From IMG/VR virus record IMGVR_UViG_2703718819_000006: DNA of 64,000 nucleotides, one strand, 5' to 3'. Shown here piece by piece: positions 3,532-50,588 of the stretch; position 1 is the stretch's first letter; every line of letters starts with the position of its first letter. Source of the DNA: a virus (lineage: Duplodnaviria; Heunggongvirae; Uroviricota; Caudoviricetes). A model generated the notes under the pieces. That model did not search any database and was not told where the DNA came from. It was given only the letters and a program-made list of their open reading frames with translations. The translations under genes and the position numbers were made by a program.

Positions 3532-3592
3532 GTGTTTTTCTCTTATCGTTTAGTAACTACATTCTTACACAAATTAGGTAAGTATTTACCTA

Positions 3593-8559: not shown

Positions 8560-9153
8560 TTACTGCTTGTTGTAAACAAAACCAATATCTTTCTTGTGAG
8601 GCATATCTGCTGCGGAAAAAGCTGCGATCTTCGCGAGTCGATCACATATTTCATTTTCACGATGCCCGGCGTGACCTTTAACCCACTTCCAGCGAACATT
8701 ATGTCGACTTGCAGCCTCATCCAGACGCTTCCACAGATCAACATTCTTTACCGGTTTTTTGTCAGAAGTCACCCATCCATTGCGTTTCCACCATTTCATC
8801 CACTGTGTCATGCCGTTTTTCAGATACTGGCTATCAGAGTGCAAAATAACGTTGCATGGATATTTCAAACGCTCCAGCCCGATAAGTGCCCCCATCATCT
8901 CCATGCGGTTATTGGTGGTGCTATGAAAACCATCTGAGAACTCGCGTTCCTCACCACGATACTGGAGAACGATACCGTAACCGCCCGGGCCACCCGGATT
9001 TTTAAGGCAAGAGCCATCACTAAAGATTTTCACGGTTTTAAGCTGGGGATTGAACTCTACGACAGGCGTTGTGGGATTGGTGCGGGGGGAATTTTTGTTT
9101 TTGGCTTTTTTGCGAGTTTTTGCTTGCGATCGAGCTGGTGTCTTCGTCGTCAT
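8560..9153 (-). CDS. rnhA: ribonuclease HI
   Basis: Strong similarity to RNase HI (FSDGSC..GGYG, TNNRME, KGHAGHxENExCDxLA); start moved to ATG with AGGAG RBS. Confidence 0.85.
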
Positions 9154-9735
9154 ATAAACTCCTGAATCAAGCGCCGCGCCGATTTTTCCTCGCGCGTGCG
9201 CACACGCGTGCGTGTTAATAATTATTAAAATAAACAAATTACTTCCCAGAACAGGTTTTTATAAACCTGAACTGAACGAACGAAGTGAGTGAAGTTCACC
9301 TCGAACGAAGTGAGAGGTTGTCTTTTCAGGTAATACTCTCCCAGGGAGGTGAGTATAAAAATCTCTCACCAACCTGGTCGTTTCATAACCTGAAAAGTTA
9401 TGGTCTAAGTCTACTGCCAGCTTAGACTTGGGAAGTTATGGATGACAGCACCCCAGAACCGAGATCTTCCCACACTTTATGAAGGGGAGTACTGGATTCA
9501 ACCTCTCGAAACACCCCAGACTCGACAATCATAAAGTGACCCTTGTCTCCGCTCACTTTGGTTCCCCCTTCCCCGACACCTAAACGGCACCAGTTCTACG
9601 CTGGTAGTGAGCTTTTTTAAACCTGACGCCAGTGACGCTTACCCCCACCCATCAGGTCGAGTCTCCAGTCTACGACTGGAAACTATCAGATCTTAGCACT
9701 TACAATTCACTTTATGAATAGTTTGTACTTATCTA

Positions 9736-9990
9736 TCATTGTGATTGATTATTTTCTCTACCATGTAGTTGAACATTCAAGGCAAACACCTCATTGATCA
9801 ACTCACCTAAAAGCTGTTCAACAAGTTCGCGATGCTCGCCAAGATGCAAGCACTTAATTGCCCATTCGTACAAGTTGAAAGCCTGCTCACGATCTTTCAT
9901 CATTTCACGAGCCTGGGCCAGAAAATCGCTCTCTACGAGCGCAACGACATTAGTCGGGTATGACATGTTGGTTTCCTTAAAGTGGTTCAT
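9736..9990 (-). CDS. hypothetical protein
   Basis: ORF track. Confidence 0.4.
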   Translation of the reverse strand: MNHFKETNMSYPTNVVALVESDFLAQAREMMKDREQAFNLYEWAIKCLHLGEHRELVEQLLGELINEVFALNVQLHGRENNQSQ

Positions 9991-10071
9991 AAAATCGATT
10001 TTAAAGCGTCTGGGAAGGGGTTCTAGTGGATTCTGTAGTGATGTTCAGGTCTGGAGTCTCTGATACAAAAC

Positions 10072-10130
10072 AGCCTGCTTCCGTATATTAATAATTAATA
10101 TGTAGTTATTTATATATACAGAAGCAGGCT
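10072..10130 (-). terminator. long AT-rich-loop hairpin (17-bp stem), probable intrinsic terminator; near-identical copy at 58388..58443
   Basis: Arms agcctgcttccgtatat / atatacagaagcaggct; fully paired (one G-U) when read as minus-strand RNA, followed by U-rich tract. Confidence 0.4.
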
Positions 10131-10151
10131 AATTACAGACGCCAGAACAAA

Positions 10152-10745
10152 CTAAGCAACCTTCTTTGATGGTCTTTTTTTCCTGATCACATTCGCAGGA
10201 TCATACCCTCCCAGACTTTTCATGACGTCCAAAGGGATCTTGCTTATAGAGTGCCCAGCGTCCTGACAGAATCCTCGAAAAACAACGAGCATACTGCCAC
10301 CTGGGTTGATGTTTACTTCTACCTGACCCAGATTGACGTCAGGCTCGACAAACGCTACGCGGCCACCAGACAGAATAATCGTCTCATTCGCACACTCTGT
10401 TGCACGCTCATACCACTTTGTATCTAGGGATTGAGGAATTAGCATCACTGTTGTAACTCCGCGAGCCTGCTCACGTATAGCAGCATCAATCCAGGGGGAG
10501 ATTTTGGAGTAGGGTGGATTGAGGAAGGCAATTGTACCTGGCTGTCCCCATTCAGATTTCAAAGCATCACGCTCAATGCCTATGAAATTAGGCAGCTTTG
10601 CGTTGTCCTTGTTGCAGGCAACGTCAACATCAAATGTCACTCCAAGATAACGTTGAATGGCAGAAAACAGCCAATCAGGTGTTCTCCAGAGGTCACGAAG
10701 AGAGTTGTCGCGCTTTCGCTGTTTGATTTTTTCGGCTGCAATCAT
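10152..10745 (-). CDS. phage Dam-like N6-adenine DNA methyltransferase
   Basis: WRTPDWLF, FDVDVACN and NPPYS motifs characteristic of the small phage N-6-adenine methyltransferase family. Confidence 0.7.
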   Translation of the reverse strand: MIAAEKIKQRKRDNSLRDLWRTPDWLFSAIQRYLGVTFDVDVACNKDNAKLPNFIGIERDALKSEWGQPGTIAFLNPPYSKISPWIDAAIREQARGVTTVMLIPQSLDTKWYERATECANETIILSGGRVAFVEPDVNLGQVEVNINPGGSMLVVFRGFCQDAGHSISKIPLDVMKSLGGYDPANVIRKKRPSKKVA

Positions 10746-25865: not shown

Positions 25866-25874
25866 TTATCCACT
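25866..25874. promoter_or_regulatory. DnaA-box-like sequence (TTATCCACT) next to GATC cluster
   Basis: 8/9 match to TTATCCACA; adjacent repeated GATC sites. Confidence 0.4.
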
Positions 25875-25977
25875 GGATAGATCCAAATAAGAGATCCCAA
25901 GTAAGATCAAATAGAAGATCCAAAGAGATCCCCGATCGCCTCTAGCCGTTGCGGTTACTGGTCTGAAAGGGTGTTGC

Positions 25978-26080
25978 CATCCACTATGGAGAGCAAAGAA
26001 ACCTCTGTAGAGAGCTGAATAACCGCTATGAAGAGTAAAACAACCACTCTGGAGAGCTGTATATATCCACTGTAGAGAGT
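25978..26080. repeat. iteron array A (5 direct repeats of ~16 bp, ~21-22 bp period)
   Basis: Repeats of consensus ATCCACTATAGAGAG. Confidence 0.75.
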
Positions 26081-26238
26081 AGAGCACATTGTCTTTTATG
26101 GATAACTTAATGACTTAATTCTTCATTAACATACTGATATACATAGATATATTTTAAACTCTACTCTTAGTCATGATTCTTATGTCCTTAAATATCCACA
26201 GAAGAGTAGAGTTACCTGTTCTTGAAATCCTCTGATTT

Positions 26239-26247
26239 TTATCCACA
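26239..26247. promoter_or_regulatory. DnaA box (TTATCCACA)
   Basis: Perfect 9-mer in AT-rich segment between iteron arrays. Confidence 0.5.
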
Positions 26248-26357
26248 GGCCCGATCCAGTAATTCAGATCACAAAGAGAACCAAAGAGACCCATAAAGAC
26301 CCAATAAGATCCCCGCCCACCTCAAACCGTTGTGCCATCTGCCTTCAGACATGATCG

Positions 26358-26480
26358 ATATCCACTATAGAGAGCGAATAATCCACTATAGGGAGCAAAG
26401 CAACCACTATAGAGAGGAGAAAAACCACTATAGACGGTAGGATAACCGCTGTGATGAGTGCTACTATCCACTGTAATCAG
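26358..26480. repeat. iteron array B (6 direct repeats) immediately upstream of repA
   Basis: Repeats of (A)ATCCACTATAGAGAG at ~21-22 bp spacing. Confidence 0.8.
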
Positions 26481-26521
26481 CAAAGGCCACCAAAGCCGTC
26501 GAATAACAAGAGACATTTGGA

Positions 26522-27577
26522 ATGAGCGAAAACGGCAATAAAAACATAGCGATCGTTGAAGCATTTTCAGAAACAGATAAAAAGACAGGCGAAGTTGTTA
26601 CGTTGGTTCCTAACACTAATAACACTGTTCAGCCTGTTGCTTTGATGCGTCTGGGCCTCTTCGTTCCGACGCTGAAATCGACATCCAGAGGAAGAAAGGG
26701 GCAAATGGTCTCTATGGATGCCTCTGCTGAACTCAAACAGCTGTCTCTGGCAAAAGCCGAAGGGTACGAAGACATAAGGATCTCTGGCCTTCGGCTTGAT
26801 ATGGATAACGACTTTAAAACGTGGGTGGGAATAATCCACGCGTTTGCCAAACACAAGGTCGTTGGCGATACTGTCACGTTGCCGTTCGTTGAGTTTGTAA
26901 GGCTGTGTGGCATTCCGACCGCCAGGTCATCAGCGAAGTTACGCAAACGCCTGGACAGTTCGCTAAGCCGTATTGCCACAAACACCATCTCGTTCCGTAG
27001 CAAAGGCTCTGATGAGTTTTACGTAACGCATCTTGTGCAAACGGCAAAATATAGTGTCAAGCACGATACGGTCGAACTGAAAGCAGATCCCAAGATTTTC
27101 GAACTCTACCAGTTCGACAAAAAGGTTCTTCTGCAACTCCGGGCTATAAACGAACTCTCAAGAAAAGAATCCGCTCAGGCGCTTTATACTTTTATTGAAA
27201 GTTTGCCGCCTGATCCGGCACCAATATCACTAGCCCGTTTACGCGCCAGACTTAATCTGACAAGTCGCACTATTACTCAGAATGCGACGGTAAGAAAGGC
27301 TATGGAACAGCTGCGAGAGATAGGATATCTCGATTACACGGAAGTTAAGCGCGGAAACTCGGTCTACTTCGTCATCCACTATAGGCGGCCAAAGTTACGC
27401 CAGGCACAAATATCAACAAAAATCGATAATGATGAGACGGAATATAGCCTCCCAGATGAGAATCAAGATGACATTATCGACGTTGTGCCTGACGAAAAAG
27501 AAGGCAAAATGGTCATGTTGAGTAAAGAAGAACTGGCACTTCTCGAAGAGTTGCGCAAGGCAAAGACTCGCAAATAG
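26522..27577 (+). CDS. repA: plasmid replication initiator RepA (P1 RepA family)
   Basis: [42 protein letters not shown] and [12 protein letters not shown] closely recall P1 RepA; flanked by iterons. Confidence 0.85.
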
Positions 27578-27580
27578 CCC

Positions 27581-28060
27581 AACCACTGTAGTTAGTAGTA
27601 AGGCTCACTATCCACTGTAGTGAGCCTTACTTATATCTGTAATTCGCTATCCACTATAGTGAGTATCGTTATCTGTTGATAACCACTGTAGGCAGTAGAA
27701 TGCAAATACTGAATTAAATGTTAGTGATCACTAACACTGATGAAACAAGGGCTGCGAGGTTAGTGGTCACTGGGTATCTTGGAAAATTTACTGTCTATAG
27801 TGGTTGTTGTCGCCCTCATCTTTGAGCGTATCCACTGTGGCGAGTGGATATCCACTGAAAACAGCAAAGGCTTACTCACCATAGTGGATACCCGCTGGAC
27901 ATCTCACTCCAATACTCACCATAGTGGTTGTTTGATGCGAATGAAAGGCTGTCTACTCGCTACAGTGGTTAGCAGATATGTAGGAAGGTTTTGTTACTGA
28001 CTACAGTGGATAATGAGCTGGATACGAATGCGGTGAGCAGACTACTCACCGCAGTGGTTG
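27581..28060. repeat. downstream iteron array (incA-like), repeats in both orientations
   Basis: About 11 copies of CCACTGTAG / CTATAGTGG-type repeats. Confidence 0.75.
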
Positions 28061-45908: not shown

Positions 45909-46295
45909 ATGTCTGATAACAAGATTGAATTTATAGAAAGTCGCTATGCTGCTTTTATCGCAGGGCTGATTGAATCCTCACCTATGAGTCAGGCCCAAAT
46001 AGCCAGACTTATTGGTTATAAAAATGCCAACAACCTTTCTTTAATTAAAAGTGGCAAAATTCCTTTGCCTATCGATAAGGTTCGTCCGTTGGCGCTGGCG
46101 CTGGGTATTGAGCCAAGTCGTCTTATGATGATGGTGCTGGAAGAACGCCAACCTGAACTCGCAGCATTTTTATACAAAGAAGGCACCGCTCCTCTTAACG
46201 AGGACGAAAAACAGGTTCTTGCTGCATATAACGAGCGATTCGGTAAAGAGAAAGGCGCATCACAAAAGGTTGTTGAGGCTATAAAGTCTCTATGA
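45909..46295 (+). CDS. helix-turn-helix (XRE-like) transcriptional regulator
   Basis: HTH segment SQAQIARLIGYKNANNLSLIKSG; convergent with recombinase gene. Confidence 0.6.
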   Translation: MSDNKIEFIESRYAAFIAGLIESSPMSQAQIARLIGYKNANNLSLIKSGKIPLPIDKVRPLALALGIEPSRLMMMVLEERQPELAAFLYKEGTAPLNEDEKQVLAAYNERFGKEKGASQKVVEAIKSL

Positions 46296-50341: not shown

Positions 50342-50417
50342 TGGTGCCGGTTAACGGACTTGAACCGCTGGCCATTCGCTTACAAAGCGACTGCTCTACC
50401 AACTGAGCTAAACCGGC
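50342..50417 (-). tRNA. tRNA-Thr (anticodon TGT)
   Basis: Hand-folded: acceptor GCCGGTT/AACCGGC, D-arm GCTCAGTTGGTAGAGC, anticodon loop TTTGTAA, encoded CCA. Confidence 0.7.
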
Positions 50418-50421
50418 AATT

Positions 50422-50508
50422 TGGTGGGGAGTGATGGAGTCGAACCACCCGAGTCGCAATGACGGTAGATTTACAGTCTACACCGCTACCTCTACGGACT
50501 AACTCCCC
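50422..50508 (-). tRNA. tRNA-Tyr (anticodon GTA), type II
   Basis: Anticodon arm GTAGA-CTGTAAA-TCTAC, T-loop GGTTCGACTCC, acceptor GGGGAGT/ACTCCCC, encoded CCA. Confidence 0.75.
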
Positions 50509-50513
50509 TAAAT

Positions 50514-50588
50514 TGGCGATGGTGGGTGGATTCGAACCACCGACCAGTTGGTTAACAGCCAACTGCTCTACCGCTGAGCTACACCATC
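50514..50588 (-). tRNA. tRNA-Asn (anticodon GTT)
   Basis: Anticodon arm GTTGG-CTGTTAA-CCAAC, T-loop GGTTCGAATCC, acceptor GATGGTG/CACCATC. Confidence 0.75.

Follow-up and report, generated by a model that had tools for sequence, protein, structure and literature searches.

A candidate non-coding RNA gene with a putative promoter of its own, and two unrelated sequence types, in SSU5/pHCM2-like phage-plasmids

What occupies the apparently gene-free DNA upstream of the RNase HI gene in IMG/VR virus record IMGVR_UViG_2703718819_000006, a Caudoviricetes sequence whose 64,000-nucleotide (nt) stretch we analyzed and call the window? An earlier note, made from the sequence alone, had described positions 9238-9735 as a hairpin-rich region of ~500 bp free of open reading frames (ORFs), and had proposed a structured RNA, a regulatory region, or a secondary origin. 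No conserved ORF was found in 9238-9735, where RefSeq/PGAP likewise places no annotation, and the gap to RNase H proved longer than described, reaching 9154. Among the proposals, the structured RNA was upheld: the region is better conserved than its flanks, carries compensatory changes, and is transcribed in published RNA sequencing (RNA-seq) data (PMC9928086), and a negative Rfam scan indicated that it is not a known family. We consider it likely that the locus is an independent gene for a structured non-coding RNA (ncRNA) that acts as RNA, and we hold much less confidence in any particular function. A segment of 701 bp around the locus was 99.7% identical to many Escherichia coli plasmids of ~110 kb, and its identity was 97-99% with phages CMS-2020a, PhiR41_1, and Cyrano and 87% with Salmonella phage SSU5; because of these combined plasmid and phage identities, the window can be assigned to an SSU5/pHCM2-like phage-plasmid of E. 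coli.

The central result is that the element evolves more slowly than the genes around it. In 100-bp bins spanning 9300-9599, identity to seven lineages was 83-97%, compared with ~65-85% for RNase H, the small ORF upstream, and Dam, and the RNase H proteins at the same loci shared merely 77-84% of their amino acids. Nucleotide identity of the RNA exceeded that of the upstream ORF at individual loci as well (relatives are given here as L numbers): 89 vs 74% in L260, 83 vs 69% in L258, and 93 vs 74% in L264. The conserved block, which extends from ~9658 to 9240, shares 88-97% identity with relatives in which the flanking genes reach only ~65-85%, and the ~75 bp from 9735 to 9660 are variable. 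Judged by this comparison, the island must be functional, because it appears to be non-coding and yet changes more slowly than its coding flanks. A sensitive search of PLSDB matched 687 plasmids, nearly all with a full-length element in a single copy on each replicon; 684 of them retain no less than 80% of its length, and identities were 80-100%. The hosts were Klebsiella (310), Escherichia (195), Enterobacter (88), Salmonella (49), and others. The element was also found in 12 phage records and in 232 of 5,426 complete E. coli genomes. The distant viral RNase H loci L155-L162 held no homologous RNA, and an attempt to find relatives through RNase H in genome contigs yielded no useful loci, as chromosomal rnhA swamped the results.

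Comparison of base pairing among relatives provided evidence for an RNA. RNAalifold, applied to an alignment of 28 representative relatives, predicted 129 pairs, in which 99.4% of cells were standard pairs and 8 pairs (33 cells) had changed on both sides. When the 3' partner was slid by 1-3 columns as a control, only 35-48% of cells were paired, with 0-2 compensated pairs in 0-4 cells. Because the independent lineages were few and covariation can arise from shared ancestry, distant members were added by way of the upstream ORF, namely L260 (a Buttiauxella plasmid, 89% RNA identity), L258 (83%), and L255/L263 (61%). With the lineages of 61-83% identity included, 36 of 112 predicted pairs showed compensatory double changes, and whole helices had been rewritten. 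The counts also indicated a strand. Read as minus-strand RNA, the helices contained 436 G.U cells vs 3 A.C cells, and 25 variable pairs switched between Watson-Crick and G.U against 3 involving A.C (binomial p = 2.7e-5); read as plus-strand RNA, just 87% of cells were paired. Base pairing is thus preserved on the minus strand only. A smaller share of paired columns varied (49 of 258) than of unpaired ones (58 of 177), and hairpin loops vary where stems do not. The RNA is G-rich, with 118 G and 87 C. One locus, L259 (logan:SRR8137545 contig), was excluded as a bisulfite-converted assembly with a C content of 0.1%; it imitates a divergent homologue and, if kept, would inflate G.U counts in covariation analyses. 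A single-pair covariation screen for pseudoknots was uninformative, as lineage effects make hundreds of column pairs covary.

The repeats that had drawn attention to the region are all present. The direct repeat CGAACGAAGTGAG occurs exactly twice (9277-9289 and 9302-9314), where we estimate a chance expectation of ~0.002 for an exact 13-mer repeat in 500 bp, and a third, related copy, GAGGTGAGT, lies at 9346. The inverted repeat CCAGGGAGGTGAG/CTCACCAACCTGG was located at 9341-9353/9365-9377, surrounded by a longer one at 9322-9334/9385-9397, and AAGTCTA/TAGACTT belongs to a hairpin at 9427-9403. Compared with dinucleotide shuffles, the sequence folds more stably: z was -3.2 (minus strand) and -4.1 (plus strand) for 9238-9660, and -5.0 for the proposed full transcript (9686-9222, minus strand).

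Published expression data place a transcript at this locus. Misson et al. (PMC9928086) re-analyzed RNA-seq of E. coli LF82 carrying the phage-plasmid Cyrano, whose copy of the element is 96.5% identical to that in the window, and listed CYRAN_81, an ORF inside the element, as a 'moron' expressed 12-fold above prophage background. In lysogeny broth (LB; S1 table), CYRAN_81 reached ~117 fragments per kilobase per million (FPKM), compared with 9.5 for the upstream ORF CYRAN_80 and 8.4 for RNase H; in lysogens it exceeded both neighbors 12-40 times, with a margin of 3-5 log2 units in all five conditions, rose to log2 10.3 inside macrophages, and the signal fell to background in rnhA (PMC9928086). 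Its profile across the five conditions (6.9, 9.2, 6.9, 8.6, 10.3) followed those of the putative repressor (6.6, 9.2, 7.5, 10.3, 9.9) and the integrase (5.6, 7.9, 6.1, 8.9, 10.3), not those of its neighbors (PMC9928086). The top Cyrano lysogen transcript by far was a separate one, the hypothetical gene CYRAN_43 (OV696614.1 40268-40822; ~7,000 FPKM, 723 times background), which has no match in this window and might likewise be a mis-annotated RNA, or else a strongly expressed moron.

A second, unrelated RNA at the same place extended these observations. In a sister lineage of ~110-kb Klebsiella plasmids (n=30 in PLSDB), the gene order is the same and a gap of 650 bp recurs, with amino acid identities of 70% for Dam, 50% for the small ORF, and 51% for RNase H. 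This gap holds a different structured RNA of ~430-465 nt (L167:3346-3997; L168-L184, L262), which we call type B, the RNA of the window being type A. Type B displays a palindrome overlapping its -35, the promoter TTTACT-17-TATCAT, and a GC-rich 5' hairpin with compensatory changes; its body showed 12 compensated pairs in 8 sequences, with 97.9% of cells paired vs 36-46% in slid controls. At its end stands a canonical terminator, TTCGRCC...GGYCGAA with 7-8 U behind it, which shows covariation as well. Complementarity continues beyond this terminator (CCUAAC/GUUAGG and GCUGGAC/GUCCAGC, with covariation), so that the terminator forms the apex of a very long, imperfect helix. Type B is likewise conserved above its flanks, and its sole surviving reading frame is a 27-codon GTG frame without a ribosome-binding site. 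No homology between the two types was detected: nhmmer returned nothing in either direction, and the best local alignment scored 27 against a shuffle maximum of 29. Among IMG/VR loci with the small ORF, 80 of 80 carry one type or the other immediately downstream (type A in 70, type B in 10). At L262, a divergent type B RNA lies beside a small ORF that is 70% identical to the kind linked to type A and 47% identical to the kind linked to type B; because of this mixture, the RNA types appear to have been reshuffled between lineages as cassettes.

The predicted anatomy of the type A gene is collected in Table 1. Its 5' stem-loop, in which 95.5% of cells were paired vs 18-65% in slid controls, retains its stem while its sequence differs, the usual mark of a 5'-terminal stabilizing stem-loop. 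A promoter scan of the SSU5-type lineage found TTTAAA-17-TAAAAT at the homologous position, where the -10 is of the extended kind, and its hits there were the only ones on that strand; the window's own promoter scores 8/12 and was for that reason not listed by the scan.

Table 1. Predicted features of the type A RNA gene in the window, from the upstream motif to the 3' end
Feature	Position	Strand	Description	Behavior among relatives
Palindromic motif copy	9720-9733		Degenerate here, GATAAGTACAAACT on minus strand; consensus ATA-GGTAAGTAnnTACC-TAT; abuts the -35	TAAGTA half invariant in all lineages
Putative sigma-70 promoter	9690-9718	-	-35 TTCATA (9718-9713), 17-nt spacer, TG (9698-9697), -10 TAAGAT (9695-9690)	-10 TAnnAT with preceding TG/GT, and TTnAnn 17 nt further up, in all lineages, inside an otherwise variable stretch
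5'-terminal stem-loop	9660-9684	-	AGUUUCCAGU-CGUAG-ACUGGAGACU; begins at inferred transcription start (~9686-9683)	Different sequence in almost every lineage; 3 of 6 aligned pairs doubly changed
Helix P1	9620-9658	-	Long hairpin with several G.U pairs	3 to 5 compensated pairs
Long-range helix	9551-9612	-	GCUCAC (9612-9607)/GUGAGC (9556-9551); surrounds small hairpin and G-rich tract GGGGAAGGGGGAA	Pair 58:116 UA>CG/UG; rewritten CCUGU/GCAGG in L255/L263, three compensated pairs
Long hairpin domain	9473-9538	-	Closed by CACUUUAUGA/UCAUAAAGUG	Compensated pairs
Hairpin with inner stem	9429-9472	-	UGGGAAG...CUUCCCA; in the most invariant part (~9500-9440)	Invariant in close lineages; three compensated pairs in L255/L263
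Hairpin	9403-9427	-	GUCUAAG-loop-CUUAGAC	Pairing kept while 242:266 (GU/GC/AU), 243:265 (CG>UA, 8 sequences), and 244:264 vary; six compensated pairs in wider set
Domain with inner hairpin	9322-9397	-	Hairpin CCAGGUUGGUGAG...CUCACCUCCCUGG (9377-9341); two mutually exclusive outer pairings predicted, CAUAAC/GUUAUG or CUUUUCAGGU/ACCUGAAAAG	Stems kept, loops variable; compensations at 306:328, 308:326, 277:287
Two 13-nt direct repeats with hairpin between	9277-9314	-	RNA sense CUCACUUCGUUCG	Invariant in 28 representatives; largely retained in the 61%-identical L255 lineage
3' end	9222-9276	-	Hairpin 9276-9245, invariant CUGGGAAGUAA (9249-9239), U-rich tract UUUGUUUAUUUU	405:414 UA>GC; stem rebuilt in L131 and L150

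The palindrome beside the promoter, centered ~43 bp upstream of the presumed transcription start, may serve as an operator. The pattern RGTAAGTANNWACY had 15 matches in the window against 1.2 expected, and phage Cyrano carries ~20 palindrome sites, almost every one of them between genes, in the early, late, and lysogeny regions alike. The 14-mers in the window lie at 3577, 8547, 9720, 10760, 24996, 28795, 32831, 45864, 51338/51342, and 58283/58287, and the core GGTAAGTAnnTACC is often extended to ATAGGTAAGTAnnTACCTAT(CAT). A near-perfect copy is found 32 bp upstream of the putative repressor gene (45909-46295), and the copy at Dam (10760) ends 14 nt before the start codon. The palindrome could be the operator of the master repressor, a phage-specific promoter element, or a stem-loop at the RNA level.

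These observations suggest the following picture. The type A gene, on the minus strand like the genes that flank it, would be transcribed from its own sigma-70 promoter (-10 at 9695-9690) into an RNA of ~440-465 nt, which would open with a protective 5' hairpin (9684-9660), form about ten helices across 9658-9245, and close at the 3' hairpin and U-rich tract (~9240-9222), ahead of RNase H. The RNA would be made in the lysogenic (plasmid) state, in which the neighboring replication and nucleotide-metabolism genes are silent, and the palindrome beside its -35 may place it under common control with the repressor. It would act in trans, as a riboregulator or as the scaffold of an RNA-protein complex in a program of prophage maintenance or immunity, and its sequence types would behave as exchangeable cassettes. 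Four observations point to such a role in trans: co-expression with the repressor region; a promoter adjoining one copy of a palindrome found at ~20 intergenic sites, among them the promoter region of the repressor; evolution slower than that of the phage proteins, as would be expected for a dense fold or a conserved, possibly host, partner; and the sharing of one locus by unrelated types, as specificity determinants often do.

Several points weigh against this picture. Only ~6-8 independent lineages are available, and many unrelated column pairs covary through shared ancestry, so that single compensated pairs are weak evidence; the case for the fold consequently rests on their total, on the G.U asymmetry, and on the rebuilt terminal hairpins. 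The published libraries are of unstated strandedness (PMC9928086); they thus establish that an independent unit is transcribed in lysogens, but not from which strand, and the minus-strand assignment of the transcript rests on sequence evidence. The locus has a putative promoter of its own, predicted ends, structure on one strand, and a transcript, as a stand-alone ncRNA gene should, with both ends being positions deduced from sequence. A scan for promoters and terminators found no canonical intrinsic terminator at the 3' end of E. coli type A, for which reason the exact 3' end is uncertain; 9222-9276 probably acts as a weak intrinsic terminator or as a site of processing. The role in trans was reached by exclusion, because nothing identifies a partner: a search for complements in the 108-kb Cyrano genome gave a longest match of 13 nt, inside nrdA and at about chance level, and inspection for a GGA-in-loop pattern found none. 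The 76-amino-acid (aa) protein encoded upstream was considered as an RNA binder of the Rop kind and rejected, as it is acidic and gave no significant match in the PDB, Pfam, or PADLOC.

The neighboring genes inform the choice between this independent RNA and its alternatives. Local genes form one long minus-strand block devoted to replication and nucleotide metabolism (nrdAB, thyX, dfrA51, an exonuclease, and Dam methylase). Downstream of the RNA lies RNase HI (9153-8560, minus; Pfam RNase_H, E = 2e-44), whose start is the ATG at 9153, preceded by an AGGAG ribosome-binding site, and not the TTG at 9237. Upstream lies the small ORF (9990/9966-9736, minus), which encodes 76 aa counted from its conserved start. 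This acidic protein (9736-9966, minus; phrog_5343) is the sole constant neighbor of the RNA, present in every lineage and with both RNA types; it is silent in lysogens, its AlphaFold model is a three-helix fold (predicted local distance difference test score 80), and it had no Pfam, PADLOC, or significant PDB fold match. The downstream gene is variable. Most lineages have RNase HI there. In L172-L174 (2084-2533) its place is taken by an unrelated 148-aa gene of opposite orientation, in L260 (Buttiauxella plasmid CP110081.1, 3395-5231) by Gabija GajB (E = 2e-122) with an OLD-family ATPase (GajA), again on the opposite strand, and in L255, L257, and L263 by a 200-aa protein that lacks an RNase H domain (weak DUF7557 match, L255:3329-3931). 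The slot downstream of the RNA looks like an accessory or defense hotspot.

This replacement of the downstream gene bears most directly on the best-surviving alternative, in which the RNA would be a cis-acting leader or attenuator of the rnhA operon, with constitutive initiation and a folded leader that ends transcription ahead of RNase H as long as no signal changes its fold. In most relatives rnhA follows the RNA immediately and in the same orientation, the 12-40-fold drop from leader to gene would suit a leader in its OFF state, and each of two mutually exclusive helices around CAUAACUUUUCAGGUUAUG seems to have been preserved. Nevertheless, the RNA is retained where rnhA has been replaced, as in L172-L174, in L260 with Gabija, and in L255, L257, and L263, which argues against both an rnhA leader and a primer processed by RNase H, and shows that the link to RNase H implied by the earlier note is incidental. 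A test for a riboswitch or attenuation leader found no conserved same-strand downstream gene, the position being held by rnhA, the 200-aa gene, GajB/GajA, or the 148-aa gene. Moreover, type B finishes in a canonical terminator, and ~90 nt containing a separate conserved GC-rich hairpin separate the RNA 3' end from the rnhA ribosome-binding site. We regard a leader as improbable.

A smaller probability attaches to an antisense RNA of immunity or anti-immunity, of the P1 c4, P4 CI, or N15 cA kind, in which AAGUGAG would pair with repeated CUCACUU and silence downstream genes such as an antirepressor. The resemblance is real in several respects. Like the P1/P7 c4, P4 CI, and N15 cA RNAs (Rfam C4, RF01695), the element belongs to a phage-plasmid or satellite, has a promoter active in lysogens, lies upstream of accessory or antirepressor genes, and exists in sequence variants; its distinct types at one locus recall heteroimmunity. 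The segment AAGUGAGC (9558-9551) is complementary to the upstream GCUCACU and to both downstream CUCACUU repeats, reminiscent of P4 seqA/B/C and P1 c4 a/b, and SSU5 has an 'anti-repressor Ant' three genes past RNase H. The c4, CI, and cA RNAs are ~70-90 nt long, are processed from a leader by RNase P, and carry short complements to repeated targets in the same transcript. The RNA described here is instead ~450 nt long, gave neither an Rfam match nor a tRNA-like fold in the scans, and does not conserve its candidate target pairing. Neither C4 (RF01695) nor any other family was matched even at E up to 10, and ARAGORN found no tRNA-like element in 9100-9800. In L255/L263, AAGUGAGC and its upstream partner become GCAGG/CCUGU while the downstream repeats stay CUCAC; since solely the upstream partner covaries, pairing with the downstream repeats is not maintained, and the L255 lineage led us to reject a pairing of the P4 seqA/B/C type. 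No complement longer than 13 nt was found elsewhere in the Cyrano genome, and E. coli-lineage elements lack an annotated antirepressor in the slot of SSU5's Ant. By analogy, the element would work most like these lysogeny-expressed phage-plasmid RNAs, but it fails their defining test of conserved target pairing.

About as doubtful, and marginally more so, is an RNA that would serve a secondary (lytic) origin as primer or in an R-loop, comparable to ColE1 RNA II, T4 oriF, or mitochondrial conserved sequence block II (CSBII), with the adjacent RNase HI as the processing enzyme. This would account for RNase HI downstream in most lineages, for the G-rich RNA with tracts such as GGGGAAGGGGGAA, and for the AT-rich tract past the 3' end, and the element does encode T4-like UvsW, UvsY, gp32-like, and RecA/UvsX-like proteins. 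ColE1 RNA II is also a structured plasmid RNA of several hundred nt, constitutive and tied to RNase H, with sequence types that define incompatibility groups. The secondary origin suggested by the earlier note nevertheless found no support: RepA iterons and DnaA boxes were absent from 9100-9800, and cumulative GC skew has no inflection at 9-10 kb. Unlike for RNA II, scans of the window and of L120 showed no promoter-like site of the RNA I kind directed into the RNA from the antisense strand, no Rfam RNAI match was obtained, no origin signature is present, and RNase H is a dispensable neighbor. Helices under selection along the whole RNA, and the terminator of type B, suit a released RNA better than a persistent hybrid. 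A RepA/iteron replicon lies 17 kb away (25867-28059), where two clusters of ~21-bp-spaced iterons (ATCCACTRTAGWGAG, 23 copies, some inverted) flank repA; perfect DnaA boxes occur at 26239 and 20590, and DnaA boxes cluster with the iterons at 25.9-28.1 kb.

We assign a very low probability to a site acting at the DNA level (an operator array, or a partition, packaging, or recombination site) on which RNA folds would be incidental. Direct and inverted repeats, extremely invariant blocks, and a copy of a genome-wide palindrome at the edge would be natural in such a site, but selection on duplex DNA cannot produce the asymmetry between G.U and A.C, the compensatory changes keep pairing and not sequence, transcription is well above that of the neighbors, and type B repeats the layout of an RNA gene with an unrelated sequence. 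Least probable of all is a small protein such as the 44-aa CYRAN_81 (9556-9422, minus), which is annotated in one record (Cyrano), was counted as an expressed 'moron' (PMC9928086), and is thus formally the annotated small protein gene in a relative that the earlier note had named as speaking against an RNA, but which has a GTG start without a ribosome-binding site, is intact in 22 of 28 representatives and shifted or lost in the other 6 through 1-2 nt indels that fall in the loop region of the 9473-9538 domain, and shows substitutions that follow base pairing and not codon positions; other frames are intact in 7-22 of 28, and the sole ORF of at least 20 aa intact in 28 of 28 is a trivial 20-codon GTG frame within the invariant block.

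The independent RNA gene was also compared with further known classes. Over the whole window, Rfam 15, whose families include C4, RNAI, tmRNA, RNase P, 6S, group I/II introns, GOLLD, and ROOL, returned at gathering thresholds three tRNAs only (50.3-50.6 kb), and searches of 9000-10200 and 9215-9700 at E up to 10 gave only sub-threshold microRNA and small RNA noise. GOLLD and ROOL, which occur in phages and prophages, and the comparable orphan classes OLE and raiA are similar in being unusually long for ncRNAs of bacteria, in having many helices supported by covariation, in residing on mobile elements, and in having no known mechanism; the present RNA differs in having no Rfam match, in its occurrence on phage-plasmids of Enterobacteriaceae, in its expression in lysogeny from a putative sigma-70 promoter, and in the two unrelated types at one locus. 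Type III toxin-antitoxin systems (ToxI, CptI) share the order of promoter, structured RNA, terminator, and nuclease gene, a mobile element, and expression in the carrier state. Their antitoxins consist of tandem 34-45-nt units that are cut by the toxin. In contrast, Tandem Repeats Finder detected no array here, the sole direct repeat being 13 nt x2, the downstream gene is an ordinary, replaceable RNase HI (Pfam RNase_H), and the neighbors had no PADLOC match. Literature searches gave no relevant report of a small or non-coding RNA on pHCM2, pLF82, SSU5, or phage-plasmids. No described RNA family was matched, and we conclude that this is a new RNA family with two types.

A bolder and rather unlikely extension is that these RNAs represent a new class of large (~450 nt), cassette-like molecules, with at least two unrelated types interchangeable among lineages, that would determine the specificity of phage-plasmid coexistence through RNA-based immunity or incompatibility, or scaffold a conserved host machine during lysogeny. 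If true, the mechanism would have no described counterpart among systems of the c4/CI or RNA I/II type. SSU5/pHCM2-like phage-plasmids are common in clinical Enterobacteriaceae and carry resistance genes, dfrA51 in this window, and the control of their lysogeny, copy number, and mutual compatibility is essentially unstudied. The element is the best-conserved sequence of its neighborhood and one of few loci expressed in the prophage state, and it has been missed by annotation and once mis-called a protein. Conserved, prophage-expressed, and invisible to annotation, it offers an obvious handle on those questions. It would also give the few large bacterial and phage ncRNAs of unknown mechanism an enterobacterial counterpart whose host is genetically tractable, and swap experiments would be straightforward because two unrelated types occur naturally at one locus.

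Two minor observations concern other parts of the window. Between the RNA 3' end and the rnhA Shine-Dalgarno sequence, at 9165-9213 (minus), lies a GC-rich block of alternating purines and pyrimidines, CACGCACGCGTGTGCGCACGCGCGAGG-AAAAATC-GGCGCGGCGC, which is kept across lineages in a genome of 45% GC and is able to fold into an all-GC hairpin of 9 bp; it might affect the translation or stability of rnhA, or be DNA prone to adopt the Z form. The three tRNA genes, at 50345-50588 (minus; Rfam 75.5, 69, and 40.5 bits), correspond to tRNA-Asn, -Thr, and -Ser in Cyrano.

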